DNA of 64,000 nt from Candidatus Latescibacterota bacterium. Lineage in GTDB: Bacteria; Latescibacterota; UBA2968; UBA8231. Of the stretch, positions 14,752-29,414 are shown piece after piece. The DNA lies in the NCBI GenBank assembly GCA_965204725.1, contig OZ242005.1:2592001-2656000 (forward strand), written 5' to 3'. The notes beneath the pieces were generated by a model. The model did no database searches. It was not told the DNA's origin and saw only the letters and a list, made by a program, of their open reading frames with translations. The stretch's first letter is position 1. Every line of letters begins with the position of its first letter. A program made the translations under genes and the position numbers.

Positions 14752-15029
14752 GACTGTTTGTACGCGGCGAGGATGCGGTCGCCTTCCTCTTGGGTTTCGC
14801 GCAGGAGCGTTTGTAGCACGTCTTCGGGGGTGCCGGTGCGCTCTTGCTTGGCGGACCAGTGCCACTGCTCCAAGTAGGCGTCGCTGCCGACGAGCCCTTC
14901 CTGCATGGCGATGCGGTCGATCGCCTGTTGGAAGCGGGCGGGCAGGGTATGCGAGCGCGGCCGGCGGTCGACAAAGAGCTTGATTTGCGCGGGAATGTCG
15001 CGCCAGTAGAGGACTTGGTATTGAATCAT
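14748..15029 (-). CDS. 'Virulence factor' (Virulence_fact) domain protein, usually linked to split MetH/MetF loci
   Basis: [26 protein letters not shown]. Confidence 0.8.
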
Positions 15030-16030
15030 GCGGCTAGTACTTGGCGAAAGGCGCGGATGTGGTCGGGCGTGGTGCCGCAGCAGCCGCCGATGATCTGGAC
15101 GCCGGCCGCGGCCAAGTCTGGGAGGTGCGCGGCCATTTCCGCGGGGCTTTGCGAGTAGATGGTGCGGAGGGCGCTGTTAAGCCGCGGCATGCCGGCGTTG
15201 GGATAGGTCATCAGCTTCTTGTCGAGGCCGCGCTCCTGCATGGCGGCCTTAAACTGGGCAACGCCGTGGAGGGCGTACGGCATGCCGGTGTGCTCGTTGC
15301 GCCGGGTCTCGGCACCGCAGTTGACCCCGACGAGGTGGACGTGGTCGAGCAGGTTGTCGCCCCCGGAGTATTGGCCCGAGGCGAGTATGTCCAAAAGGTC
15401 GGCGGCCGAGTGCCCCCAATCGGTGCGATAGACGATCTGCTTGCTTTTGCGGTCCCGCGTGTATTTAAGCGCGAGGTTGACGGCCATGGGCAGGCCGGTC
15501 TGGCGGACGATATTGCAGATCATGGCCGCTTCGACCGCGGAAAACTGAGTCTCAACCGAGAAGAAATCGACCCCGCCTTCGTAAAGCGCGTCGATGATGC
15601 GCTGATGCGCGGCGCGGACCTTGTCGTTGGCAATGCCGAAATCCGTACTGCCCGCGTCGGCTTCAATGGCCCCGGGGGAGGGGCCGATGGAGCCGGCGAT
15701 GAAGACATCCCGCTCGCCGAGTTCCCGGGCGCGCTGGGCGAGCTCGGCCCCGCGCTGGGCCAGCGCACCGGCTTGAGCCGGGTCTTTGCCGGCCATGGCC
15801 AAGTGCAACTCCGAGGCGACAAAGGTGTTGGTGCCAATGCAGTCGGCCCCCGCGGCAATGTAGTCGGCATGAATGGCGACGACGGCCTCGGGGTGGCTTT
15901 CGTTGGCGAGGGTGGAGTTGGTCAGCTCGACTTGGCGAGCGAAAAGCTCGGAGCCAAAGCCGCCATCGTACAAGAGAGGGCGCGGGTCGTCGAGGCACTG
16001 GAGGAAAGGGGACACAGGGCAGGTCTCCAT
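15026..16030 (-). CDS. Stand-alone homocysteine S-methyltransferase domain
   Basis: [46 protein letters not shown]. Confidence 0.9.
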
Positions 16031-16086
16031 CTAGGACAGGGTGTCGGCGCAGGAGCCGCTGAACAGCCATTCGAGCAAGCGTTGGC
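16031..16086 (-). pseudogene. Displaced original 3' end of the esterase gene (QRLLEWLFSGSCADTLS*)
   Basis: Shares 22 bp with 23461-23482; its TAG directly abuts the ATG of the homocysteine methyltransferase gene. Confidence 0.7.
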
Positions 16087-16148
16087 TAAGATATGAGAGA
16101 CATCTTTATCGCGGGATAGCGAAAGCGCATTATCTATCATTTATTGTG

Positions 16149-17207
16149 CTAACTGTAGTTGAATTGCACCAGTTTAAGGGCTTTTTTCGGTTCCAACGGA
16201 TGTAGGTGGGCAAGGTTATTGCGGGCGTCACGTAGGTATTTGACTTTGTTATGAACTTTACAATAAGTATGGGACCACACAGACCTCTCAAGTTCACTGA
16301 GCTCCACATCAAGAGGATCCTTACACTGTAACGCTCTCTGAAATTTAGACATGTTGTTGCGGACGATCTTGACACGTTGGGACTCTATCTGTGGTAAAAG
16401 CACTGCTGCTTGGGCACTCCAAAGGCGGATCTGGAGTGTACGCGGTGGCTCCTCAAGAGAGGCGAGAGCGGCATGCTCGATTCCAGACTTTGACGCGGTT
16501 CCAAGTTGCCAATCTAAGGGTGTGTGGAGCGTCCATCCTTTTTCTTTCGCAACAGATCGCAGCATTTCGCAAGGTGACAGAATAACATGGGGCCTCTCGT
16601 CGAGTAAGCGCATTGCGATGTCGAAATCCCAAGATGCTATGTAGGCTACCGTTGTGGCTAGAAGGATGCGTTGGGAATAGTTCATTCCTTTTTGCAACAG
16701 ACGGTCATTGGCCCAGAACAGGAGGTCCATTTCGTCAAGAACATCGCTCCAGTCATGTGTTTCCATCGTCACATCGTTTTTCGGTGGCTCCTCGGGCGGC
16801 TTTCCCTCAAGAGGCACAATAAATAAGGTCCGACCAAGAGATGACATGGCCCGATTCACCTGCGCGTATTTGGTGAGGAATTCTTGCCATTGCTGCCACA
16901 CCTTGGGGTGTACGCTGTCCAACCAAATAAGCTTGCCACGAAAACCCTCGTGTTCACAGAGTCCATGCAAGTCTCCTGTATTCGATAATACGCTAGGTGC
17001 GTACTTCTTACATAGCCCCTCAAACGGAGAACTCGTACACTTGAACCTTACAAAGTTCAATCCTTGCACATCTTTTATAATCGCATCTTGGAATCCTAGT
17101 GGCATCGTACCTGGGAACCTTACGATTACGCTCACACCATCGTTTAATGATCGCCCTATCGCTTTCAGAAAACGTACGGCACCGGACAATTCCCAAAGTC
17201 TCATCAT
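16149..17207 (-). CDS. Hypothetical protein with C-terminal HEPN-type RxxxxH motif and possible degenerate NTPase fold
   Basis: LRDARNNLAHLHPL near the C-terminus; KLIWLDSV Walker-B-like strand; ATGA overlap with the upstream ATPase. Confidence 0.6.
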   Translation of the reverse strand: MMRLWELSGAVRFLKAIGRSLNDGVSVIVRFPGTMPLGFQDAIIKDVQGLNFVRFKCTSSPFEGLCKKYAPSVLSNTGDLHGLCEHEGFRGKLIWLDSVHPKVWQQWQEFLTKYAQVNRAMSSLGRTLFIVPLEGKPPEEPPKNDVTMETHDWSDVLDEMDLLFWANDRLLQKGMNYSQRILLATTVAYIASWDFDIAMRLLDERPHVILSPCEMLRSVAKEKGWTLHTPLDWQLGTASKSGIEHAALASLEEPPRTLQIRLWSAQAAVLLPQIESQRVKIVRNNMSKFQRALQCKDPLDVELSELERSVWSHTYCKVHNKVKYLRDARNNLAHLHPLEPKKALKLVQFNYS

Positions 17208-20200
17208 CCACTATCTTTCGTCAGAAGTCGCTTCACTAGTGGATTAAAAGACCAACTATCACGGTATTGCAGTAATCCGAGACGTTTAGCCCAATCCAGT
17301 CGTTGACTCAAAATCCCATCAGATGAAGAGTTTTCCTTCATCTCAGACAACAACTCCTCTACCCCTTTCGCATCCTCAGAAGTGAATGCCTCGTACTCAA
17401 GCAGAGCCTGAAGCTGATTTTTAATTTCAGGAGAGTCAATACCCAAGAGCTTTAGCCACTCCTCACGTTCTTCTATGATCGTGTTATTGATCTCCTCAAT
17501 TAGCGTGTCCAAGTTAGTCGATGATAGCTGGTAGAACTTCTCCAAGATAAAAGGCCATCCACCAGAGATGTCGAGCAAATCTTTCACCTTAGATTGGTCA
17601 ATTAGCAGGTTATTATCATCGCACCATTGGCGTAAAAAAATGTGATTCCATGGACCCGCATAAATCCAATCGATACGTCTATTGTCCTCAGTAGTCTCCA
17701 GTATGTGCCACAGCTTAGCCGAGTCCGCTACAAAAACGACTCGAATATAAGGTCCTCTCTGAATAGCATCTAGGGAATTGGTTGCTTCCTCGATCCAATG
17801 TACATCCCAAGAAGTCTCCAAAGGCACCAAATACACATGAGTGCCTTGTCTCGCATCTGGACGTAATTTTCTCAGATGCTTGCTGAAGGCATCCACATCC
17901 TTAAACCGCTCTAATTCTTGGTACAATGGGCTTTCTTTTTTAGGGTGGCCCAATTCTATACGGCCCGAAAGAAACTCTCCAATATCCTCAATATTCACCG
18001 CGTTTGTGCCCGTCACTACCGTCACGCCACCATTACGTCTTAGCTGTGCCTCCTGCTCATAGCTCAGTGGTCCACGCCTAGGTGATTTGTCATCTCCTTT
18101 GTATCTCGCATGGAACGAGGCGGGCTCAAAGACTTTTGGCATTTCGTGCTGTTTGTCAAGCACTTGCTCAATTTCATCACTCGTTCCTAATAACAAGAGA
18201 ATATTGGGATTGCGAAGGGTATATCGGGCACTATCTTTCACTTGGCGCAACACACCAAGACCCTCCATCTCATGGAGAAGTACGTACAACTCGACATCAG
18301 GAATTTCAAAACCTTCCGGCCACCAAGTTCGTACCACTTCCGCTATTCGGTATCGATTCAATCCTTGTGCAATGTTTTTAGCGTTTCCCTGCAATTCGAA
18401 TGCCATTGCATAAGCAATGACCTCGTATCGCGGGTCTAACTGCAAAGTTAGCAAAAAGCGTCCGCGAATGTTTTGTCGGAGTCCATCCCTGATAAACGAG
18501 GCTTCGATGTCCTCCATGCTTATTTTATAGTGAACTTCCTGTGAGGAATCCCGCAAGTACCTGAGAAGTTCGGCACCATATAGTTGAACGAGCGACGGGT
18601 AGTAGTTGGTCTGTGCAAGTATGTGAGTGATCAGGTTATCTCCTGCGAACTGATATCCAACTGAGGATAACGGCTGACGAATTAGAGATCGAGCTTCTTG
18701 CCATTCACCATTCGAGAGAAGCGGGCCAAGACAAATAGGTTCTCCTAAGTGGGCGAGAGGGTGATTGGCCTGCTCTGTAGTCCTCAAGACGTTGTGTAAT
18801 CCAGCAAAGACGACCTTGAATTTCCTGCCGGTTTCTTCCATCAACCCCTTTAGGCGTGTAGATTCGCGAAAATCCGATTTCGCATCGAGTTTCAAGAACT
18901 CGTCCGACTCGTCCAACAGCACCAATAACCGACCTTCTTTGCGTTCTCTGATGATGTTCTCGAGAGTACTGATCCAGCGACGATGTCCAGCTTGTCCCTG
19001 TCGCGCTTGACTGTCATCGGGCACGAGTTCGACCTTGATCAATTCGTCCCACAGAACACGCCATATATCTTCTGCTGGACGAGCGTAGCCTATCTCGCAA
19101 ACCTTGAGATCGACATATATAGCGACGTTTCCCTTCTCCGGGCGGTGGAAAGTAGCCTTGACGGAGCGAAGTAGGGCAGTCTTGCCGAGTTGACGGCCTC
19201 CGTAGACAAAACAGCTTCCGTATTCATCTATAATCGCACTGTGTTCTCTCGCACGGCCATAAAACATTTCAGGTGGCACCAAGCTCGAAGTCGTAATAAA
19301 CGGTTCGGCCGACGTAAATGGTAGGGTACAGCTAAAAAATGCATGTAACCGGCCGGAGGTCACAGTGGAAAGGAACAGGACGAGAGCCTCATCGACTACA
19401 AGAAACAATTTATGATGCTGTATCGCCCAGTTGCGGAGCCACTCGCGATCAGATGTCAATAGTCCAAAGTGGAAGACCATTGTATGGTCGTGTGCATCGC
19501 TCGACTGGATTAACGATTCTCTGGCCGGTTTCTTCCAATTCAATAGGATTCTATATTGTCCGTTTGCCGCCGAGCCAAATATATGGAGCGGGCATAGATC
19601 CCGATCTCGAAGGGGTTCCGTCTCTACCTTGGCGGATGTTTTGCTATCGGACGAGACACGTTTTACTACAAACCCCAATAGTTCCAAGAACTCTCTGAGG
19701 AGATGCTCGTCAACGTCATGGTATTGGAGTTTTGACATTTTATACCAAATCTCTAGTAAACGAGCCGCCCGTTTTGCGTCCTGTTTCGCAATAGAACTAA
19801 AATCGAGGCCTGCGACAGGTCTACATGTCGCCACAGTTCTTACGATCTTGTCGTACGTTGGACGGTCTGCCGCATCCAGAGTGCTCTCGATCTCCAATCT
19901 CTTCGTCTGGAATTCATCGAACTGACCGCGTTCATCCGATTGTTCTATTATCTGTTCGCCACTACTCAACCTTCCGATTTGTTCTCGGGCAGTTACGAAG
20001 TCGCCCTCTTCAATAGCGGCTTCCACAATCGACTTTTCTTTCGAGGTTATCTGAGGGAGCTCGTTCAAATAATTGCGAGTGTCCTCGACACCCTTAGTGC
20101 GATACTGAGCGAGGTATTCTCTAATATCAGCGAACTCTTTTTCGTTGTACAAGATAGACTCCGGAGTCGAGAATTCCTGCAGAATTCGCGCCGCTAGGTC

Positions 20201-23200
20201 GTTTCGTACGTCTTCGTCGATCCAACCCGAGTAGTAAGCCCGCTCTATTTCTTCGATTAGTTTAGACTGTTTGTTGCGTAGTTTTTCACATCGCTGACTG
20301 ACAACTTCCTTGAGTTTGGTTCGACAGTGAGCCTCGTCCTGATCGGTGATGGAAGCCATGTGGTCACAAACGAGATTTGCGCCGATTAAGTCATCCCGCT
20401 TCAGACGAGCATCGAACGCTTCTATCAGTGTCGAGACGTGAGAGTCCAAATCATTGAGATGATCAACAGCCGAGTTCGAGTCCTGATCAACGACTAGTTC
20501 GTATTCTCTGTTGATATCCAGTGCGGTAACGTAAAGAAGGTCTTGGGACAAGATGACGGCAGGTTTTTCGGTGAAGACAGAAGTGTCCGTATCTTCACTG
20601 ATCTCGAATAATCTCGTCAGTGCCTTGATAGTTTTGTGACTTATTGTGAGGGCGGATGCGAGCGGTAAGGGTGGGCATTCGCTTTGGACTTGCTCAATTG
20701 CTGCAAGTGCGGAATCCCTGTGCTGGATTACGACAGTACGCAACTCCTCGATAGCCCGCTCAAAGAATTTTTTCTGATCTGGCTTTACTTCCATCAGTGA
20801 CAACCATTCTTGAGCGAGATCAAGTATGGGTTTCAGATGGTTTTTGAGTTGCTCTAGAGCACGTGCCTCAATGTTCCGGCCAGTCTGCCGACCGATCTTG
20901 TTGCGATCGGTATCACGGACGAGGTTCTGAAACTCTCGTTGCTCCTTAAGCTGCTTCTGAAGTTCTTGAATTCTCGTTCGGTTCTTTTCTTCGGCATTCG
21001 ACAGCAACTCTGCAAGATCATGCAATATCTCACCCTTGAGTTGCCACCTTCGCCAGACTTCATGCGCCGGTGCAAACATGATTCGCTGAGCTTTCGCCTC
21101 GTCTCGCCACGCCTCGACTCTCGCTGCGTGATCTTTAAACCGGCTTTCTAGAAAGGTTTTGTTGAGTGCCGTTTGAAGTCTCATGACATCGAGAGGCACA
21201 TTATAAAATTTACCTATTTTGTCTATGACACCACGAGCGAACTCGGATACCGGCGCAAGTTTATCTAACAGCTTCACTTCTTTCAGAATCCGTAGGGCAC
21301 CGGTTTGCGGCGCAAATATAGCGGGTCGTAGTGCAGCGGAGAATAACAACAGGTTGAGCGCGTCTTGAGCTTTCTCTTGGACTTTAGTGTCGTAACGGGT
21401 CAAGTCGCCGATGGCGTTAAGGTGGTTTCCAAGCTCTTTTACGATCTCCCCCTCTGGCCCGTACACTGAATTTCCCAAGGCTGTTGCGGCAATCAGATCC
21501 GCAGGCGGAAATACCGCGCTCGTGCGGTCTTCTTCGGGAGTCAGCCGTGCTATGTGATACGCGATTCCTAGTCGGTCATTTCCTATAGTTCGCCACAGGT
21601 TGAGTGCTCGTAGGTCAAGTGGGGCGTCGCTGATCTCCGATCCTTGGTAGCGAACGTCGGTATCCTCGGACTCATACCGCGTACCAGCGTTGTCAGTGTC
21701 GCCATCGGATATGCTATTATCAGTCAATTCATCAGCACCCGGCAACATGGGTATAGGCAGTTCTGGGACATTCGTCTGGTGGGTTGCCGTGGTATCCTCA
21801 TCCGCTACGTTTAGGCGTGGCTCGCTCGCGTCTTGATCAGCTTGCTCCTGATCGGGAGCTTCCTGCTCTATGTCCTCTGACTGAATATCATCTCGGCCAT
21901 CGGTTGGTTCCACAACCGCGATACTAGGTGCTTGGAGATCTGCCCATTCGCGCTCATAATCTCGTTGATCTTCGTACTCATGACCTTCTGGCAATGCCGC
22001 TTTTAGAACACGGTACATCGCTTTGGTTTCTTGAGTTGTTGAATCAGCGAGATCAGTACGAAATTCCTCTATTTCCTCGCGGAGGCTGAATTGCAAGGAA
22101 GGGTCTTTTGTTACAGTATTTTCTGCTTCTGAGATTCTCTGCTTTAGTTCAGTGATACGGTCGGTCACCATGTGCAAATTACTGACAGCACTTGCTAAAT
22201 TTTGCTTGACGCGCTCTGCATCGGCTTGAAGGGCTTCAACGTCTGCTTGGTCCTCAACTAGGTAGGTGAGCTTCCAAACCGAATGTATCTTAGACAAAGG
22301 CAACCAAGATACGTCGCCGGTATGCAATCTGATGTCTTCGATAACTCCTTCCACAAGTCGTTCGGATTGAACTGCCACGTATGCCGTCAGTACAGATTCA
22401 CGAAGTTTCCCCACCTCATCAAACAGCCTCGACAGGTCGTTGAATAACAGGTCGTCTGACGGATTATCACCGAGTTTGTGTGCAGTGTCCGCTAGTGCCT
22501 CACACACTTTGCGAAACGCCCCCTCAACATCTTCTCTTTCCCCCTTAGCAGTCTCGCTGGGAAACTGTGGAAGAAGTGCTTCCTTTTCATGTGCGTCTAC
22601 GTTGGGGGCTGGAGATGAACTGGGTAAAGCAAACTCGAAATCCTCAGCAAGCTCCTCGACTTCGTTGGCTGCCCAGATGAGCAATCGGATGTCATCCAGA
22701 ATTGTCGCAACAGAGAATGCGGCGAGTGCAACATGGGTTTGTCGGTCCAGCGGAAGTTCGTTCCACTTCATTAGGTCGCTGTAGATCGCTGGCAGAGCGG
22801 CAAGAGCTGGCCTCTGCCAATCATTGGATTTGACAGAGGGCTCGAAGAAGTCAACACAATTATTAAGTGCTTCCTCGTCCATCTCAGCTTGGAATAGACC
22901 CTCGTCGTAGTTTTTGATTGCACATGCTTCCAAGGAACGGGAGAGAGGACTTTGAGTCTTGGCACCGTTAACCAAGTCCATCCATAGTTTTCGCCGTTCC
23001 TGAGGTAGTTCATAGAAGAACTGTAGACGAAGAGCCGGAGTCTGAAGATCGGGAGACAGGAGTCTGAGATCTTTTAGAGTACTTTTGATGAACGCGTCAA
23101 TCTTCCGCCTAACCGACCGGGCTTCAGCCTCAATGCCGAGAAGTACGCGAAGTGGCTTAAGATATCTCCCAGATAGTAATCGGCTGGGTAACCCTTTAGG

Positions 23201-23224
23201 CATCTTGTGATTTGCTTTCATCAT
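17204..23224 (-). CDS. 2006-aa STAND-like P-loop ATPase
   Basis: MFYGRARE, VYGGRQLGKTALL (Walker A), LLVLLDESD (Walker B), VVFAG, wHTH-like EMEGLGVL; GGAGG upstream. Confidence 0.85.
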   Translation of the reverse strand: MMKANHKMPKGLPSRLLSGRYLKPLRVLLGIEAEARSVRRKIDAFIKSTLKDLRLLSPDLQTPALRLQFFYELPQERRKLWMDLVNGAKTQSPLSRSLEACAIKNYDEGLFQAEMDEEALNNCVDFFEPSVKSNDWQRPALAALPAIYSDLMKWNELPLDRQTHVALAAFSVATILDDIRLLIWAANEVEELAEDFEFALPSSSPAPNVDAHEKEALLPQFPSETAKGEREDVEGAFRKVCEALADTAHKLGDNPSDDLLFNDLSRLFDEVGKLRESVLTAYVAVQSERLVEGVIEDIRLHTGDVSWLPLSKIHSVWKLTYLVEDQADVEALQADAERVKQNLASAVSNLHMVTDRITELKQRISEAENTVTKDPSLQFSLREEIEEFRTDLADSTTQETKAMYRVLKAALPEGHEYEDQRDYEREWADLQAPSIAVVEPTDGRDDIQSEDIEQEAPDQEQADQDASEPRLNVADEDTTATHQTNVPELPIPMLPGADELTDNSISDGDTDNAGTRYESEDTDVRYQGSEISDAPLDLRALNLWRTIGNDRLGIAYHIARLTPEEDRTSAVFPPADLIAATALGNSVYGPEGEIVKELGNHLNAIGDLTRYDTKVQEKAQDALNLLLFSAALRPAIFAPQTGALRILKEVKLLDKLAPVSEFARGVIDKIGKFYNVPLDVMRLQTALNKTFLESRFKDHAARVEAWRDEAKAQRIMFAPAHEVWRRWQLKGEILHDLAELLSNAEEKNRTRIQELQKQLKEQREFQNLVRDTDRNKIGRQTGRNIEARALEQLKNHLKPILDLAQEWLSLMEVKPDQKKFFERAIEELRTVVIQHRDSALAAIEQVQSECPPLPLASALTISHKTIKALTRLFEISEDTDTSVFTEKPAVILSQDLLYVTALDINREYELVVDQDSNSAVDHLNDLDSHVSTLIEAFDARLKRDDLIGANLVCDHMASITDQDEAHCRTKLKEVVSQRCEKLRNKQSKLIEEIERAYYSGWIDEDVRNDLAARILQEFSTPESILYNEKEFADIREYLAQYRTKGVEDTRNYLNELPQITSKEKSIVEAAIEEGDFVTAREQIGRLSSGEQIIEQSDERGQFDEFQTKRLEIESTLDAADRPTYDKIVRTVATCRPVAGLDFSSIAKQDAKRAARLLEIWYKMSKLQYHDVDEHLLREFLELLGFVVKRVSSDSKTSAKVETEPLRDRDLCPLHIFGSAANGQYRILLNWKKPARESLIQSSDAHDHTMVFHFGLLTSDREWLRNWAIQHHKLFLVVDEALVLFLSTVTSGRLHAFFSCTLPFTSAEPFITTSSLVPPEMFYGRAREHSAIIDEYGSCFVYGGRQLGKTALLRSVKATFHRPEKGNVAIYVDLKVCEIGYARPAEDIWRVLWDELIKVELVPDDSQARQGQAGHRRWISTLENIIRERKEGRLLVLLDESDEFLKLDAKSDFRESTRLKGLMEETGRKFKVVFAGLHNVLRTTEQANHPLAHLGEPICLGPLLSNGEWQEARSLIRQPLSSVGYQFAGDNLITHILAQTNYYPSLVQLYGAELLRYLRDSSQEVHYKISMEDIEASFIRDGLRQNIRGRFLLTLQLDPRYEVIAYAMAFELQGNAKNIAQGLNRYRIAEVVRTWWPEGFEIPDVELYVLLHEMEGLGVLRQVKDSARYTLRNPNILLLLGTSDEIEQVLDKQHEMPKVFEPASFHARYKGDDKSPRRGPLSYEQEAQLRRNGGVTVVTGTNAVNIEDIGEFLSGRIELGHPKKESPLYQELERFKDVDAFSKHLRKLRPDARQGTHVYLVPLETSWDVHWIEEATNSLDAIQRGPYIRVVFVADSAKLWHILETTEDNRRIDWIYAGPWNHIFLRQWCDDNNLLIDQSKVKDLLDISGGWPFILEKFYQLSSTNLDTLIEEINNTIIEEREEWLKLLGIDSPEIKNQLQALLEYEAFTSEDAKGVEELLSEMKENSSSDGILSQRLDWAKRLGLLQYRDSWSFNPLVKRLLTKDSG

Positions 23225-23447
23225 GCCTCCAAAGAGAGGGTATTAACTAAATCTTTCCGTGCAAGCTGTCAACCCTTGATTCGTCTCACTTAATACTTCA
23301 TTGCGCCCACAGGGCCTGAGGCCACCCGCTCGCAGATGCTTCTTCGCTATATCCGGTAGCAGTGGGCATAGCTCGGCTATCTTGGCAGTAGAAATTTTGA
23401 CGGGAGGGGGTATCTTCTGCGAGGGGATTGTTCGCTACGAGCTACTT

Positions 23448-24338
23448 TTACGCTCCTAGTAGCCATTCGAGCAAGCGTTGGCCAAAGTCCGGGGCCAAGT
23501 GCGGTACGTGCGCCCCTTGCACCATGGTCCACAACTCGATGGTGGCGTCGTTGCGGCAGCCCGTGCGGTAGCGGGTGCGGGTCGTCTCGGGGCCGTCGAG
23601 GTCTTGGTCGAGGTCGAGCGGGGGAAGGGTTTCTGGCTCGGTGAGGTTGCAGCGGGCGAGCGCGGCCCAGCGCAACGCGACTTCTTCCGCGCCGGCGTAC
23701 TCCTGCTCGCCGGTGCTCCCGTCGTAGGCTATTACTTGGTCGGCCGTGCCGTGGATTTGCAGCACCGAGACCGGGGACGCAAAGGCACAGCGCGAGGGGT
23801 CGCTAAAGGAAGTGCCGGCGAGGCTGGCAATGGCGACTAGCCGGGGGATGCCTTCGCAGGCGAGCCGGTAGGACATAAAGCCGCCGTTGGAGTGCCCGAG
23901 GACGAAGATGCGCTCTACGGCGATATGCGTGGCGGCCTCTTCGAGCAACCCTGAAAGGTACTGCACGTCATCGACTTGGGTGTTGTGGAGGTCGCAGCAG
24001 AAGTCCGTGGCGTTCCAGAAGCGATGGCCGTCGGGATCACGTGTGCCATTGGCCATAACGAGGGCGAAGCGATGGGCATTCACCCGCTTTGAGAGGCCAA
24101 AATAGCGGTCGTGCTCGGCCAAATGGCTAGTGAAACCGTGCAGGCTGAGCACGAGCGGAATCGGCGTTTCGGGGTCGTGGTCGGCTGGGAGAACTAGGAG
24201 GGCCGGGCGTTCGCCGCCTAACGTGTGGACGAGGTGATTTTCGCTTAGGTTGGAGATCAACTCGGTCGGGGACATTTCGCCACAGGCGAAGGATATCAGA
24301 GATGACAGAATAGCAAAAATGCTTCTTCTTTTTCTCAT
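23448..24338 (-). CDS. PHB depolymerase/LpqP-family alpha/beta esterase, probable lipoprotein
   Basis: ISFAC lipobox-like, LSLHG, WNATDFCC, GHSNGG, IHGTAD. Confidence 0.85.
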   Translation of the reverse strand: MRKRRSIFAILSSLISFACGEMSPTELISNLSENHLVHTLGGERPALLVLPADHDPETPIPLVLSLHGFTSHLAEHDRYFGLSKRVNAHRFALVMANGTRDPDGHRFWNATDFCCDLHNTQVDDVQYLSGLLEEAATHIAVERIFVLGHSNGGFMSYRLACEGIPRLVAIASLAGTSFSDPSRCAFASPVSVLQIHGTADQVIAYDGSTGEQEYAGAEEVALRWAALARCNLTEPETLPPLDLDQDLDGPETTRTRYRTGCRNDATIELWTMVQGAHVPHLAPDFGQRLLEWLLGA

Positions 24339-24463
24339 AATATTAGCCCTCCTTTCCGTTTTCGATCTACAAATTGACGAAGAATGACGCCCACACTCAG
24401 TAGGCGGTGAACCGCCCAAAGCTCAATTTTAATCTACGGAATAAGACCAACAATACCAACGCG

Positions 24464-25492
24464 CTAGGCGGCGAGTTCGCCCTTGCGATAGGCGCGGAGG
24501 AAGGCGACGCAGTACTCGTCGCGGCCCAGCAGCATATCCTCGGCCAGTTGGTAGGGACGGGCTTGGCGGTCAATGGCAAAGAGGGCGGCTAGCGAGGTGG
24601 TCGTCGGATCCATAATCGCGCTGTCGGCACCCGCTTCGACGGCCAGCAAAAGGAAGACATCGTTGATCAAATGGCGGCAGGGCAGGCCGAAGGAGACGTT
24701 GGAGAAGCCGCCGGTGATGTGGACTTCGGCCCCCAACTCGTCGCGCAGTTGGCGAATGGCGTCAAAGGCGTGGTGGCCGAATTGCGCGTCAACCGAGATG
24801 GGGAAGATCAAGGGGTCGATGTAGAGGTCAGAAAGCGGCAGGTCCAATTCCTGTGCCTTATCGACCATGCGCCGAGCGTGATCAATTCGTTCCTCAGCAC
24901 TTTGCGGCATACCGGACTCGCCAGCCGCCGTGATGACGACTTGGGCGTTGTATTGTTTGGCCAGCACTAGGGCTTCGGGCCGCTCTAAAGACGCGGAGTT
25001 GAGCAGCAGGCGCTGGGGGTGGTCGGCACCGGCTTCGAGGCCGACGGCGAGGGTATCTATTTGGGAGGAGTCAATGGCCAGAGCCGTCTGCGACATGGCC
25101 GATACCGCCTGCACCAGCCAGCGCATGGCCTCTTGTTGCTCTGCCGGCTTGAGCGATATTTCATCGACATTGAGGTCGAGAAAATCGGTGCCGGCCGCTT
25201 CTTGGCGCTGTACTTGACGGCGGAGGTAGTCGAGGGCATCCGCGTTGCCGAGCATGGCCTGTTGCACGGCGATCTTGAGGTGTTTGACGCGGCCTTCCTC
25301 GTAGTCTTGGGTTGTTTTGACGGCGTCGGGAATCGAGAGGAAGCGGCGCGTGTTGTTGGCGTCGCGGAAGCGCACGGATTCAACGCCTTGGGGGTCTGGG
25401 CCGATGAGCTTGCCTTTGCGCAAGACGACGCGGGTGGTGTGGATGTTTTCGCCGATGACGACGAAGGGACGGTCCGTACCGGGGATGTTCAT
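24464..25492 (-). CDS. Pterin-binding methyltetrahydrofolate:corrinoid methyltransferase domain (MetH-pterin/AcsE-like)
   Basis: VIGENI, FLDLNVD, AIDSS, LLNS, YIDPL, GGFSNVSFGLP. Confidence 0.88.
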   Translation of the reverse strand: MNIPGTDRPFVVIGENIHTTRVVLRKGKLIGPDPQGVESVRFRDANNTRRFLSIPDAVKTTQDYEEGRVKHLKIAVQQAMLGNADALDYLRRQVQRQEAAGTDFLDLNVDEISLKPAEQQEAMRWLVQAVSAMSQTALAIDSSQIDTLAVGLEAGADHPQRLLLNSASLERPEALVLAKQYNAQVVITAAGESGMPQSAEERIDHARRMVDKAQELDLPLSDLYIDPLIFPISVDAQFGHHAFDAIRQLRDELGAEVHITGGFSNVSFGLPCRHLINDVFLLLAVEAGADSAIMDPTTTSLAALFAIDRQARPYQLAEDMLLGRDEYCVAFLRAYRKGELAA

Positions 25493-25603: not shown

Positions 25604-26323
25604 TTAGAAGTGGGCGTCTCCAAGGTGTCCTTTCATCTCAAGTTGTAGCAAGCGACAGAGCCTGTCCGCGAACATCTCAACGCCGGGCAGTTCTGTGTAG
25701 TTGTGGGAATACACCGCCACGTTGAGTTCGTGGTGCCGGGCGTATTCGAGTAGATAAACATTGGTTTCTCCCGTCAGGTACATATCGATGTCATGGGCCA
25801 TGGCATCCCGAATGTAGCTGGTGTAGATACCGGCTCCCGTGACGCAACCTATCCGTTGAACTGTTCGATTCGCGTCGTACATGCTGCGTGGTTGCTCTTG
25901 CAGGAGCGAATTCAGTGTCGCGCAAACCGACTGGAAGCTCGTCGGGGCAGGCAGTTTGCCGATGCGAGCCTCGCCTGCTGAAGGTTTATAAACATGGCGA
26001 CACCCGATTTTGGCGAGCAGGGTGGACGATGTGCCAAAGTCTGCTAGATCCAACGGCAGATGCGCCCAGATATGCGTTAAGCCTTCGTCTTGGAGCAGAT
26101 CATGCACCGCATCTCTTTGCTCAAACATGAATTTCCACGCGTCGTGATGGGTCACAATGACATCTACGCGGCGGTCCACGGCCTCGTAGATCGTCCTAGG
26201 CGTAATCGTAGTCGAATAGCCCAACGAGGTCGGCTGGTCGCAGTGCTCTACGATTCCCCATTCATCCGGGTGATCATCGAGAAACCTTTTAGAAAAAAGA
26301 TCATCCAACGCAGCGCGAATCAT
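25604..26323 (-). CDS. Nif3-like dinuclear metal centre protein
   Basis: IVTHH, AHLPLD, VTGAG, YLTGE, HNYTE; AT-richer than flanks. Confidence 0.85.
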   Translation of the reverse strand: MIRAALDDLFSKRFLDDHPDEWGIVEHCDQPTSLGYSTTITPRTIYEAVDRRVDVIVTHHDAWKFMFEQRDAVHDLLQDEGLTHIWAHLPLDLADFGTSSTLLAKIGCRHVYKPSAGEARIGKLPAPTSFQSVCATLNSLLQEQPRSMYDANRTVQRIGCVTGAGIYTSYIRDAMAHDIDMYLTGETNVYLLEYARHHELNVAVYSHNYTELPGVEMFADRLCRLLQLEMKGHLGDAHF

Positions 26324-26441
26324 GCTAGGGTTTCCCACTCTGATTTATTCTGGAGTGTACTCTTGGTGTTTGGATATATGCCTATTTTCTATCAGAATAT
26401 ACGGTCAATCTCAATTTGAAGCCGCGATGAGAGCGAGACGG

Positions 26442-29414
26442 ATGCGTGAATGGATCGCCGGCGTTGGGCTTGTAAGCCTAGTGCTGGGGTTAGGATGCGA
26501 GCCGGAAGTAGAGACCAAAACGGCGTCGGTCGAGGTGCAATTCGTCGATGTGACCGAGGCCGTTGGCCTCGATTTTCGCCAAGTCTCCGGTAGCGCAGAG
26601 CAGCACTATATTCTCGAGTCCATGTCGTCGGGTGCCGCCTTTTTCGACTACAATGGCGATGGGTATCTCGATGTATTCTTGGTCAACAGTACGCGAGTAG
26701 AGGCCGATTCTTCGCATCATTCCAATCGGCTCTACCGCAACACCAAAGGGGCCAATGGGCGCGTCTTTGAGGACCAAACCGACGAGGCTGGCCTGCGGCG
26801 GACGGGGTGGGGTATGGGGTGCGCGGTGGGAGATTACGACAACGACGGCGATTTGGACTTGTACGTCACCTATTGGGGGCCTAATGTATTCTATCGCAAC
26901 GACGGGGATAGGTTTGCCGAGGTCGAGCTGGGCGTAGAGGACGATGGCTGGGGAACCAGCGCGGCGTTTGGCGACGTGGATGCAGACGGTTTTTTAGACC
27001 TATACGCGGCCAACTATTTGGTTTTCGACCTGCAAAACCCGCCCGGCGGCGGTCAGCTCTGTAGCGGCTTCAAGGGGTTGGACGTCTATTGCGGGCCACA
27101 CGGCATGGTGCCCCAAGCCAACGTGCTCTACCGCAACGAGGGCGGGGGCGGCTTTGCGGATATGAGCCGGACGACGGGGATTGACGCAGACCAGCAAGCA
27201 TCTTTGGGAGTAGTCTTTCTCGACAGCGACAACGACGGGGACCAAGATCTCTACGTGGCCAACGACGGCTACCCCAACCTGCTCTATCGCAACGACGGCC
27301 CTTGGCAACTGGAGGAAGTAGCGGCCTTTGCCGGGGCGGCCTATAGCGAGGACGGGCGGGCGCAAGCCGGCATGGGCGCGGCGGCCGGCGACTACGACAA
27401 CGATGGCGATCTGGACCTGTACATGACCCACTTTTCGGACGACGTCAATACGCTGTACCAGAACGAGGGGAACGGCCATTTCGTCGATTTCACGGCGGCG
27501 GCCGGGCTAGGCGGTCCGGTGCGGCCCTACTTGGGCTGGAGCACGGGATTTTTTGACTACGACAACGATGGTTGGCTGGACCTCTTCGCGGTCAACGGTC
27601 ACATCTACCCCCAAGTCGCCCAGCATCCTTCGGGACTGCGCTATGCCCAGCGCAACCTGCTCTACCAGAATGCGGGTGGGACGTTTATCGAGGTTGGAGC
27701 TAGGGTTGGGCGGGGCTTTGCCCAAGAAAAGGTCAGTCGCGGCGGGGCGCTGGGAGACTACGACAATGATGGCGATCTGGACTTGCTGATAGTGAATCTG
27801 AATGACGCGCCGACGCTTTTGCACAATCGCGGCGGGAGCCGCAGCAATTGGCTGGGGATCGAACTGGTGGGCCGTGAGAGCAACCGCGACGCACAGGGGG
27901 CGCGGGTTGTGCTCTCGGCGGATAACGGACAACAGGTGCGGGAAGTACAGCGCGGAGTCGGGTACTTATCGCAAAGCGACGGCCGGGTGCTCTTCGGGTT
28001 GGGCGCGGCCGAGGAAGTAGAGAGCGTAGATATCCGTTGGCCTAGCGGGAGGGTACAAGTTTTGGAGCGACCGGAGACTCGGCACTACTGGGTAGTACGG
28101 GAAGGAGAAGAGGGCCTCGTTTCGAGCTATGTCGGGGCGGATACAGAGGACTTGGTCGCAGGCGAGCAGCCAGTCCAAATGGACAGCGCGCTGACGGTCT
28201 CCCCCTACGTGGCCGGGGACGACCAGACGGCCGCAGACCATTATAAAGCGGGCATTGAACGGTATCGACAAGGGTGCTATCAAGAGGCGATTGACGCCTT
28301 GAGCATGTCCATCCGCATGCAGCCGGACGATCTCAAAACCTACTACTCCTTGGGTATCGCGCTCTATTCGGGGCTGGGCCGGGCCGAGGAGGCCGCGGCG
28401 GTTTTGGAGGAGGTCGTAGGACGCGATTCGTCGTGGGCGCAGGTCTATCCGCTTTTGGGAGCGGTCTATATGGATCTCAACCGCAAAGACAGAGCCATTC
28501 AGCGACTCGAGCGCGCGGTGGCATTGGATCCTACGTGGGAAAACCACAACCGACTGGGGCTGGCCCAGCTCCGCAACGAAAATCCGACCGCGGCGATCGC
28601 AGCCTTTGAACGCGCCGTTCGCCAAGCACCGTGGCAGCCGCACCCGCACCTGAACCTAGCCCGGCTCTACGAGCAACAGGGCAGGGAGCAGGCGGCCGCA
28701 CGCCAGCGGCAAATTTTTGTGCAGTTGCAGCCTATAGAAGACAGAGTGCAGCGCCATTTGGATAACCTGTCCTCCTTTCCGGGCGATATCGAATCTCGCC
28801 ATCTGCTGGGCGAAGCCTACGTGGCACAGGGGCGCGTTGAGGAGGGGCTCGCCGCTTTTCGTCAGGTCATCGCCGCCGACTCCAGCTACGCACCGGCCCA
28901 TTACGGCTTGGGGGCTGCGTTGCACTACAAGAACGAATTGGACGCTGCGATTGCGGCCTATGAACGAGCCTGCAAGCTACAGCCGGGGCTGGTGGGAGCC
29001 TTTGCGGATCTAGGCCAAGCCTACCACCAACTCCGCGACTATGAACGGGCGATTGCCGCCTATCGTCAGGCTTTGGTGCTGCAACCGGATTTGCAGGTCG
29101 TGCGAACCAAACTAGGTATGGCCTACGCCCAGCAGGGTGACCTAGCGCAGGCCGTGGCGGCCTTCAAGACGGCCCTGAGTGCCGATTCCACCTTGGTCGC
29201 CGCCCGCGACGCTCTGGCACAGGTATATGCCGCACAGGGACAGTACGCAGCGGCCATTCGCGAGTGGGAGGCCGTGCTGCGGTTGGATCCTCGCTATCCC
29301 CGAGCGGTGAGTCAGTTGCGCTTAGCCCGCGACAAGCTCGCAAAAAAGAAAGCCCCCGTTCCGCAAACAGAAGCGAAACAGGGGCTTGGCAATGAGCAAG
29401 AAGCCAGCAGGTAG
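26442..29414 (+). CDS. CRTAC1/FG-GAP (VCBS) + ASPIC-UnbV + TPR lipoprotein
   Basis: LGLGC lipobox; repeated GDYDNDGDLDL; FGLG...IRWPSG; C-terminal TPRs. Confidence 0.9.
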   Translation: MREWIAGVGLVSLVLGLGCEPEVETKTASVEVQFVDVTEAVGLDFRQVSGSAEQHYILESMSSGAAFFDYNGDGYLDVFLVNSTRVEADSSHHSNRLYRNTKGANGRVFEDQTDEAGLRRTGWGMGCAVGDYDNDGDLDLYVTYWGPNVFYRNDGDRFAEVELGVEDDGWGTSAAFGDVDADGFLDLYAANYLVFDLQNPPGGGQLCSGFKGLDVYCGPHGMVPQANVLYRNEGGGGFADMSRTTGIDADQQASLGVVFLDSDNDGDQDLYVANDGYPNLLYRNDGPWQLEEVAAFAGAAYSEDGRAQAGMGAAAGDYDNDGDLDLYMTHFSDDVNTLYQNEGNGHFVDFTAAAGLGGPVRPYLGWSTGFFDYDNDGWLDLFAVNGHIYPQVAQHPSGLRYAQRNLLYQNAGGTFIEVGARVGRGFAQEKVSRGGALGDYDNDGDLDLLIVNLNDAPTLLHNRGGSRSNWLGIELVGRESNRDAQGARVVLSADNGQQVREVQRGVGYLSQSDGRVLFGLGAAEEVESVDIRWPSGRVQVLERPETRHYWVVREGEEGLVSSYVGADTEDLVAGEQPVQMDSALTVSPYVAGDDQTAADHYKAGIERYRQGCYQEAIDALSMSIRMQPDDLKTYYSLGIALYSGLGRAEEAAAVLEEVVGRDSSWAQVYPLLGAVYMDLNRKDRAIQRLERAVALDPTWENHNRLGLAQLRNENPTAAIAAFERAVRQAPWQPHPHLNLARLYEQQGREQAAARQRQIFVQLQPIEDRVQRHLDNLSSFPGDIESRHLLGEAYVAQGRVEEGLAAFRQVIAADSSYAPAHYGLGAALHYKNELDAAIAAYERACKLQPGLVGAFADLGQAYHQLRDYERAIAAYRQALVLQPDLQVVRTKLGMAYAQQGDLAQAVAAFKTALSADSTLVAARDALAQVYAAQGQYAAAIREWEAVLRLDPRYPRAVSQLRLARDKLAKKKAPVPQTEAKQGLGNEQEASR
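29342..29387 (-). terminator. Intrinsic terminator for the 29421-30308 gene, overlapping the end of the convergent CDS
   Basis: AAGCCCC...GGGGCTT stem preceded by an A-tract on the plus strand. Confidence 0.55.

Follow-up and report, generated by a model that had tools for sequence, protein, structure and literature searches.

A Mobile Gene Pair of a Giant STAND/ORC-Type ATPase and a Partner with a Predicted Inactive STAND Module and HEPN-like Tail: A Candidate Conflict System in Latescibacterota

Introduction

How did a bacterium of the candidate phylum Latescibacterota come to carry, in the midst of housekeeping genes, a short stretch of low-GC DNA that contains only two genes, and what could these two genes do together? 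The locus belongs to the assembly GCA_965204725.1 (Candidatus Latescibacterota bacterium, lineage UBA2968; UBA8231) and lies within the 64,000 nucleotides of contig OZ242005.1, positions 2,592,001 to 2,656,000, that constitute the window analysed here; coordinates below are those of the window unless another locus is named, and both genes, with all their domains and motifs, run on the minus strand. The large gene (17204-23224) encodes a protein of 2006 residues, P0001, which its open reading frame (ORF) and family searches present as a giant STAND/ORC-type ATPase. The small gene (16149-17207), delimited by its ORF and by its overlap with the large one, encodes a protein of 352 residues, P0002. 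We consider it fairly probable (about 0.6) that the pair is a mobile conflict system dependent on nucleoside triphosphates (NTP), probably directed against phages and working by abortive infection.

The Two Genes Form a Unit

The stop codon of the large gene and the start codon of the small gene share the letters ATGA, in an overlap of four nucleotides (GGA TGA / ATG ATG), and the association extends well beyond this genome. Among the 36 genome loci that were found with the small protein, 33 show a large-protein homologue directly upstream of it. In 24 of them this homologue is intact, exceeds 1500 residues and ends within a few bases of where the partner begins, mostly with gaps of -4 to +21 nucleotides; in the other nine it is truncated at the end of a contig, split or left as a remnant. 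The three loci without a large homologue have no upstream DNA or only fragments. In the opposite direction, a scan of the phylum with the large protein retrieved a partner bearing the R-x4-H motif directly downstream at 19 of 20 places, the remaining place being degraded; five of these 19 partners are too divergent for tblastn and were recognised by reading the ORFs. Metagenomes give the same picture, with the partner directly downstream in 72 of the 76 loci that could be evaluated among the best 80 of the 534 confirmed ones. No third gene family is common to the 36 genome loci, and for this reason the possibility that the two genes are fragments of a larger known system is rejected.

The same genome has a second, paralogous pair outside the window (L039:6438-12874, on contig C1), consisting of proteins of 1714 and 431 residues whose genes also overlap by four nucleotides. 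Its large protein is 32% identical to P0001 in the C-terminal half and its partner ends with RNDLAH; the pair is situated between a gene for a periplasmic binding protein and a gene for an ABC ATPase. The two genes, hence, form a unit.

A Giant Protein with a Live ATPase Core

The C-terminal portion of the large protein was modelled with AlphaFold2 (residues 1150-2006, with 60 relatives in the alignment), obtaining a predicted local distance difference test score (pLDDT) of 88.8 and a predicted template modelling score of 0.82. In this model, residues 1306-1693 (18146-19309) form an AAA+ nucleotide-binding domain, with a helical lid and then a winged helix after it, an assignment that combines structure comparisons by VIA-align and Foldseek with Pfam searches on relatives. 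When residues 1306-1693 (residues 157-544 of the model) were compared by VIA-align with about 48,000 PDB representatives, for which the stated background of the tool is Z 7-8, the best matches were PAB2304 (2qen_A, Z 19.2 over 324 aligned residues) and SSO1545 (2fna_B, Z 17.9 over 320 residues). These are archaeal Walker-type ATPases of the ATPase_2 family which share with the live ATPase the lid and the winged helix, though they comprise only about 350 residues, unlike the 2006 of P0001, and the sequence identity is 16%. Next come the plant NLRs 9qlv_A (Z 15.7) and 9h2l_A (Z 15.4), ORC/Cdc6 proteins (Z 13-14) and a group including MuB, TnsC, BrxC, MalT, Avs3 and Avs5 (Z 10-14), in which Avs3 (8dgc) scores 11.0 and Avs5 (9jap) 10.3. 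Foldseek aligns tandem AAA+ proteins such as Rix7, DRG1, p97, ClpC and dynein across 650-780 columns of the model.

The sequence and the family alignment define an intact Walker A motif, GGRQLGKT (residues 1342-1349, 19178-19201), and an intact Walker B motif, LLDESD (residues 1436-1441, 18902-18919); GxxxxGK[ST] together with an hhhDExD-like motif recurs in 254 of 255 sequences of the large family, in the alignment of which R1481 is invariant. P0001 itself reaches no Pfam family over the cut-off and no meaningful NCBIfam match, its scores along residues 1321-1478 all falling below the respective cut-offs given in brackets: 20.1 bits for AAA_16 (32.6), 18.1 for AAA_22 (27) and 15.5 for ATPase_2 (33.2). 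The ATPase segments of its relatives match AAA_22 and AAA_16 in 25 of 25 cases and ATPase_2 in 24 of 25, with a best E value of 1.7e-9 for AAA_22; a PDB sequence-profile search with the ATPase returned nothing usable (best E 0.032). The model and its structural matches thus support a STAND/ORC-type AAA+ core, with nucleotide-binding domain, lid and winged helix, in the large protein.

Other parts of P0001 surround this core. On its C-terminal side, residues 1705-1869 (17618-18112) fold in the model as a second alpha/beta domain (VTVVTG...VVFVAD) which, from AlphaFold2, Foldseek and sequence, appears degenerate and P-loop-like, having no GK[ST]; a helical and small beta domain, seen in the AlphaFold2 model, then closes the protein (residues 1877-2006, 17207-17596). 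On the N-terminal side, residues 1150-1305 (19310-19777) form another alpha/beta domain, delimited by AlphaFold2 secondary structure and by alignment A4; the order of its strands and helices recalls the restriction-endonuclease fold, which is a reading of the model topology and not the result of a structure search, and neither PDB profiles nor Pfam gave a match.

The remaining 1149 residues evolve faster, with pairwise identities of 0.22-0.34 against 0.57 in the ATPase. They begin with a conserved N-terminal domain of no known family (residues 1-215, 22580-23224; alignment A6), continue with a poorly conserved, coiled-coil-like region with an acidic linker (residues 216-534, 21623-22579; pairwise identity 0.22) and end with a conserved region, again of no known family, which is a candidate sensor (residues 535-1149, 19778-21622; alignment A5, identity 0.31). 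PDB profiles did not match residues 1-215 or 535-1150, Pfam families were not consistently found among the members of alignments A5 and A6, and the PDB profile search with the whole of P0001 produced only weak matches of coiled-coil type, at about residues 160-450.

Most of this architecture had been anticipated by the initial annotation of the window. Its STAND-like ATPase with intact Walker motifs agrees with the structural ranking and with the family alignment; the alpha/beta segment and the winged-helix-like region that it described are both visible in the model; the acidic linker is read directly from the sequence. The second, degenerate P-loop that it placed in the C-terminal segment corresponds to the alpha/beta domain at 1705-1869, consistent with the alignments of tandem AAA+ proteins, and the long region outside the ATPase does lie, as it stated, N-terminal rather than C-terminal, which is where the identity is lower.

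A Partner with an Inactive Module and a HEPN-like Tail

The small protein was modelled from 26 sequences with a pLDDT of 89.5, and residues 1-255 (16443-17207) display an alpha/beta core with a helical lid. Foldseek retrieved the delta subunit of the clamp loader, ORC subunits and RFC for this region (E 3e-5 to 1e-3), and VIA-align retrieved an ORC protein (5uj7_C, Z 10.2), 2qen_A (Z 10.1) and Avs5 (9jap_A, Z 10.1), besides Cdc6, plant NLRs and Apaf-1/CED-4; these searches covered residues 1-261 and their Z values are little above the background of the tool. Since the matches are consistent with each other and cover about 200 residues, an AAA+/STAND-type fold is a reasonable reading for the N-terminal part of P0002. 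The motif [AG]xxxxGK[ST] is present in none of 129 sequences of the small family, and therefore the module should be catalytically dead. R126 is invariant in the small family (alignment A1).

The initial annotation had invoked contacts through an inactive NTPase, having in mind the C-terminal segment of the large protein. That degenerate domain stood up to analysis; what had been missed is that the main dead module is in the small protein, two thirds of which it would occupy. The two are not evident relatives: hhalign found no homology between the small family and the C-terminal half of the large protein (probability 1.4%), and therefore the small protein cannot be recognised as a duplicate of the C-terminal part of its larger partner. 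No longer proteins in which the N-terminal domain of P0002 is fused to others came up when such forms were sought, which is weak evidence.

The tail of the small protein (residues 256-352, 16152-16442) is a helical, HEPN-like domain according to the order of its helices and to weak profile matches. AlphaFold2 places helices at residues 256-284, 286-293/303-309, 313-333 and 340-351, and the Rx4H motif RNNLAH, which the initial annotation had spotted at 16206-16223, corresponds to residues 329-334, which take in the last part of helix 313-333 and the loop that leads to the final helix. In a survey of HEPN domains (Anantharaman et al. 2013, PMC3710099), the Rx4-6H motif is located where helix 3 ends and in the loop that follows it, with N, D or H usually after the arginine. 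The position in the model, from a protein whose fold search covered residues 1-261 only, agrees with that description, and in the same source the Swt1-like HEPN domains (PF18731) offer the closest resemblance: R-N-x-x-A-H where helix 3 ends, R being followed by a polar residue. A comparison by hhalign of the small family with one bona fide Swt1-like HEPN aligned motif to motif (E 0.001, probability 21%).

Conservation of RxxxxH had been singled out at the outset as a decisive check, and the motif is nearly invariant. In the 26 sequences of alignment A1 this holds for R329, N330, L332, A333 and H334, and in metagenomes the pattern R-x-x-[LVIM]-[ASG]-H recurs in 67 of the 71 partners that match the hidden Markov model (HMM) of the family, the other four being cut by contig ends or frameshifted. 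N mostly stands after the arginine, and a few proteins have D, H, R or T there. On this combination of motif and predicted helices, the tail is a probable RNA-cutting domain of HEPN-like type, and the small protein as a whole is reasonably read as a fusion of an inactive STAND with HEPN.

A Discrete Insertion in the Chromosome

The two genes alone occupy an island of 7371 bp (16090-23460), defined by the empty site in relatives, by low GC and by the list of ORFs. It is bounded by a direct repeat of 25 nucleotides with one mismatch, 22 nucleotides being exact, the left copy of which (16065-16089) forms, together with 16024-16064, the orphaned native 3' end of a hydrolase gene, while the right copy (23461-23485) falls within the final codons of the gene for an alpha/beta hydrolase at 23448-24419 (minus strand). 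The left flank was searched in 31 genomes of the genus and loci from 11 relatives were compared (L149-L159). All 11 have both repeat-side flanks joined through a single 25-nucleotide copy, with no island DNA; because of this the repeat must be more than a product of chance, and the island is therefore a discrete insertion, as the initial annotation had surmised in speaking of a repeat-bounded cassette. The GC content is 0.44-0.52 within the island, against 0.58-0.65 outside.

One genus member (G127) has a copy of the island, 92% identical, at the same site. Its right junction (L165:507-572, on contig C54) retains 66 bp equal to 16024-16089 of the window, namely the native 3' end of the hydrolase gene, whereas in the window 25 nucleotides are still alike and the hydrolase gene ends differently (23448-23460). 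It is therefore probable that the duplication originally exceeded these 25 nucleotides, and from this difference the junction in the window appears to have been remodelled since the insertion. A scan for promoters and terminators at the locus gave counts no higher than in shuffled sequence.

The flanking genes are of housekeeping type, coding for MnmG, homocysteine S-methyltransferase, alpha/beta hydrolase, a pterin-binding protein and NIF3. As side observations on these flanks, the gene with a homocysteine S-methyltransferase domain (15026-16030) and that with a pterin-binding domain (24464-25492) are separate genes for two parts of a methionine-synthase-like enzyme, and the hydrolase gene and the island sit between them. 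Further along the window, an FG-GAP/ASPIC/TPR protein of 1030 residues is encoded at 26322-29414. Genes of this kind also flank the pair in Acidobacteriota loci (L012, L014, L035 and L036), probably a coincidence of common genes.

A Widespread but Patchy Family with Exchangeable Parts

The last 999 residues of the large protein, taken as query for an exhaustive HMMER search, retrieved 3406 representative clusters (at 50% identity) with E <= 0.001, of which 2064 with E <= 1e-30; the homologues are mostly about 1700-2100 residues long. A word-indexed search found 1335 proteins of the large family, for which source names were few and invariably 'hypothetical protein', and 55 relatives of the small protein, which have neither a Pfam domain nor a name. 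Within the phylum, a homologue of the large protein is present in 16 of 168 genomes and, within the genus, in 8 of 30. Homologues occur on 28 plasmid records, and plasmid pSR118 of Salinibacter ruber SP73 has the canonical pair annotated, with proteins of 1927 and 377 residues and the motif RNRIAH.

Of the 136 ORFs that lie nearest to the pair at the 36 loci, 127 were scanned; among the nine ORFs dropped, eight overlap the N-terminal part of the large gene and one, in L036, overlaps the small-gene fragment at its start. At 12 of the 36 loci the neighbours include transposase, PIN, AbiEii, HipA, type I restriction, DNA methylase, HNH, AAA_14/DUF4143, HEPN or UvrD-like genes. How much of this could be explained without any role in defence? 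The pair might be a selfish addiction module, resembling toxin-antitoxin (TA) systems, which stabilises the island and the plasmids by having the large ATPase restrain a HEPN toxin. It is mobile, plasmid-borne, tightly coupled in translation and often placed beside TA genes, and HEPN proteins are, in the survey mentioned above, common toxins of TA pairs (PMC3710099). Yet an ATP-driven partner of 2006 residues with a long, faster-evolving region far exceeds the size of known antitoxins, and the second, coupling-dependent position of the toxin-like gene, together with the fold matches to NLR proteins, points to a regulated sensor. We have thus rejected a plain TA pair as the principal interpretation and retain the addiction module as a rival only, an improbable one.

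Variants of the pair are informative on the division of labour between the two proteins. The partner gives way to a PLD-SNF2 helicase of about 1100 residues in two metagenome loci, L069 and L073, as it does on a plasmid of Brasilonema. The large homologue of that plasmid, pBOCT2 of Brasilonema octagenarum (L160:2792-13051), has 2289 residues and contains at its N-terminus a complete sigma-70 module (regions 1.2, 2, 3 and 4). A plasmid of Azospirillum ramasamyi (L161:1-11280) carries a large homologue of 2403 residues with part of a pPIWI_RE RNaseH domain at its beginning; the gene before it is another one annotated as an RNaseH-domain protein. This hints at a link between the large-ATPase family and PIWI-RE systems. 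The 557-residue partner of the large homologue is clearly related to the small family (probability 98.8% and E 4e-17 by hhalign), with the motif RRGMAH and an added AAA_33 kinase-like domain.

Such variability of N-terminal modules (sigma-70, RNaseH), which is often seen in effector or adaptor modules, allows the roles of the two proteins to be exchanged. The dead STAND of the small protein would then be a receptor for nucleic acids, as proposed for inactive STAND domains in general by Kaur et al. (2021, PMC8195603), and the output would reside in the large protein, either in its N-terminal half or in the endonuclease-like alpha/beta domain that is found just before its ATPase, leaving the HEPN with a secondary or back-up function. 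We regard this exchange as unlikely: the alpha/beta domain has no (D/E)xK-type motif in alignment A4 and no match to nuclease families, the HEPN motif is strongly constrained, and the replacement of the partner by a helicase-nuclease in one sub-branch fits the partner position being the slot of the effector.

Apart from these variants, one divergent pair (L059) has directly downstream, at L059:1088-3294, an ORF of 217 residues and another of 518 residues with an NPPW motif, followed by a ParA-like gene. From its translation, the 518-residue product resembles a DNA methyltransferase, and the two may constitute a restriction-modification pair.

A Sensor-Switch and Its Docked Effector

How would the two proteins work together? 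The most likely scheme that we infer assigns to the large protein the functions of sensor and switch: its faster-evolving N-terminal half of about 1150 residues would recognise a cue of the invader, and the ORC/STAND-type AAA+ module would bind and hydrolyse ATP, driving a change in the state of assembly. The small protein would be the effector subunit, its dead AAA+/STAND module docking into the assembly of the live ATPase in a manner analogous to the inactive subunits of ORC and clamp loaders. Through this docking, HEPN domains would meet and make up an active RNase, RNA would be cut and the infected cell would stop growing. Activation of HEPN domains that depends on dimers is established for RNase L, Ire1 and Cas13.

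This scheme is favoured because a large protein with a live AAA+ module is paired with a partner in which a dead AAA+/STAND module bears RNxLAH in HEPN position, because the genes are tightly coupled and kept together across loci with no conserved third gene, and because the same logic has been proposed for nSTAND2 pairs (PMC8195603). The part of it that concerns conflict is favoured because the island is a discrete insertion, the presence in the phylum and in the genus is patchy, plasmids are among the carriers and defence or mobile genes are among the neighbours at a third of the loci; likewise, swapped N-terminal modules and altered or replaced partners represent the modularity that is typical of conflict systems.

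Several results pull in the opposite direction. PADLOC-DB 2.0 has no family for either protein at E <= 0.1; no recombinase gene is encoded within the island, the two genes being its only ORFs; no homologue was found on phage records; and some distant homologues of the large protein (L065, L081 and L164) have no recognisable partner beside them. The HEPN assignment is affected, too, in that P0002 matches no Pfam family at E <= 5 and no HEPN family over the cut-off, and Pfam HEPN_Swt1 matches 6 of 26 members of the small family with E values that resemble sub-threshold ones (best 8.7e-4). In addition, only metabolic or unknown genes were seen among the scanned neighbour ORFs of 24 of the 36 loci.

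The last point, two thirds of loci with ordinary metabolic neighbours, can be combined with the sigma-70 fusion of one relative and with the retention of two paralogous pairs in one genome to suggest a cellular function acquired by transfer and unrelated to conflict, for instance regulated RNA turnover or transcription-coupled quality control under stress. A patchy distribution even within the genus, an empty site, low GC and variable partners and N-termini would be unusual for housekeeping genes, however, and such a function seems very improbable to us.

A more elaborate version of the scheme can be envisaged, which we hold to be doubtful. The pair would form a hetero-assembly like those of ORC or clamp loaders, with one live and two dead modules of AAA+ type, the latter being the degenerate C-terminal alpha/beta domain of the large protein and the dead STAND of the partner. 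The N-terminal half would be a new, swappable sensor of the state of transcription or nucleic acids, not of a phage protein, and the partner position would be a socket for effectors such as HEPN, HEPN with a kinase or a PLD-SNF2 nuclease. The family would then represent a distinct and very widespread branch of bacterial NLR-like immunity (3406 clusters at 50% identity) which has escaped the catalogues of defence systems.

Relation to Known Systems

The conflict system that we favour has its nearest counterpart in a design so far only predicted. According to Kaur, Iyer, Burroughs and Aravind (2021, eLife, PMC8195603), the nSTAND2 system is a mobile operon of two genes, both products of which have a STAND module, one eroded and fused to GT4 or HEPN, with a conserved arginine finger in both proteins as a trait of the system and a toroidal hetero-multimer as the proposed assembly. 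The pair described here likewise consists of adjacent genes with a STAND-type module each, one of them with eroded NTP-binding motifs, and its inactive module carries a predicted HEPN-like tail in the small protein.

This resemblance needs to be qualified. The Pfam model of nSTAND2, PF20702, does not match P0001 or P0002 at E <= 0.1, nor anything in the whole of the same genome or in three other pair-carrying genomes at E <= 0.01, nor any of 25 ATPase segments of relatives at E <= 1; it does match 5 of 401 other genomes, always with short or weak hits on small contigs. Structure comparison places 2qen/2fna, plant NLRs and ORC/Cdc6 next to the pair instead of mitoribosomal S29, although absence from a list of the top 50 is weak evidence. 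The search for longer proteins and the loci examined disclosed no form with GT4, and one variant adds AAA_33 instead. Moreover, the accessible portion of PMC8195603 makes no mention of a live subunit of about 2000 residues, of an N-terminal extension of 1150 residues or of a second, degenerate alpha/beta domain. Judged by the PF20702 model, then, the pair matches the nSTAND2 design yet would not be a member of nSTAND2.

The initial annotation had been unable to assign the genes to a named system. This holds for PADLOC and PF20702; it needs amending in that a system built in the same way has been published as a prediction, in the paper just cited. Our search of the literature found no paper describing this family or testing such a pair, and the source data of PMC8195603 may list some members.

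What do systems with more familiar names have in common with the pair? Avs/AVAST and bNACHT proteins share with it the STAND-type core of nucleotide-binding domain, lid and winged helix, a large non-catalytic region presumed to be the sensor, an effector of nuclease type and a patchy, mobile distribution. In them one polypeptide unites an N-terminal effector with a C-terminal sensor made of repeats, whereas the long region is N-terminal here and a second protein, which has a dead STAND module, bears the effector. The fusions of STAND and HEPN listed in PMC3710099 have the HEPN at the N-terminus of an active STAND with TPR/S1, in contrast to the C-terminal HEPN-like tail on a dead STAND of P0002.

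Hma and the DUF499 systems related to type 1 BREX also join an ORC/STAND-type ATPase to a HEPN RNase as presumed suicide effector but, according to PMC12839542, they need a methyltransferase and a helicase-nuclease and have the HEPN fused N-terminally to the ATPase. An identity with DUF499/Hma or BREX-related systems is rejected, there being no conserved methylase or helicase partner, variable neighbours across the 36 loci and no match in PADLOC.

Biological Significance

If the proposed interpretation is true, the family would constitute a large branch of STAND/NLR-like immunity that is uncatalogued and so far only predicted. Two of its features would be rare among validated systems: an effector carried by a subunit of its own, with a dead version of the ATPase fold as docking module, and a long, faster-evolving region in N-terminal position. 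The family would put to the test the 'two STAND' paradigm that Kaur et al. (2021, PMC8195603) advanced in silico, and Salinibacter ruber SP73, the cultured host of the copy on pSR118, makes such tests practical. Beyond immunity, the pair may offer a handle on how inactive AAA+/STAND subunits relay activation, a question that is common to ORC, clamp loaders and the paired NLRs of plants.

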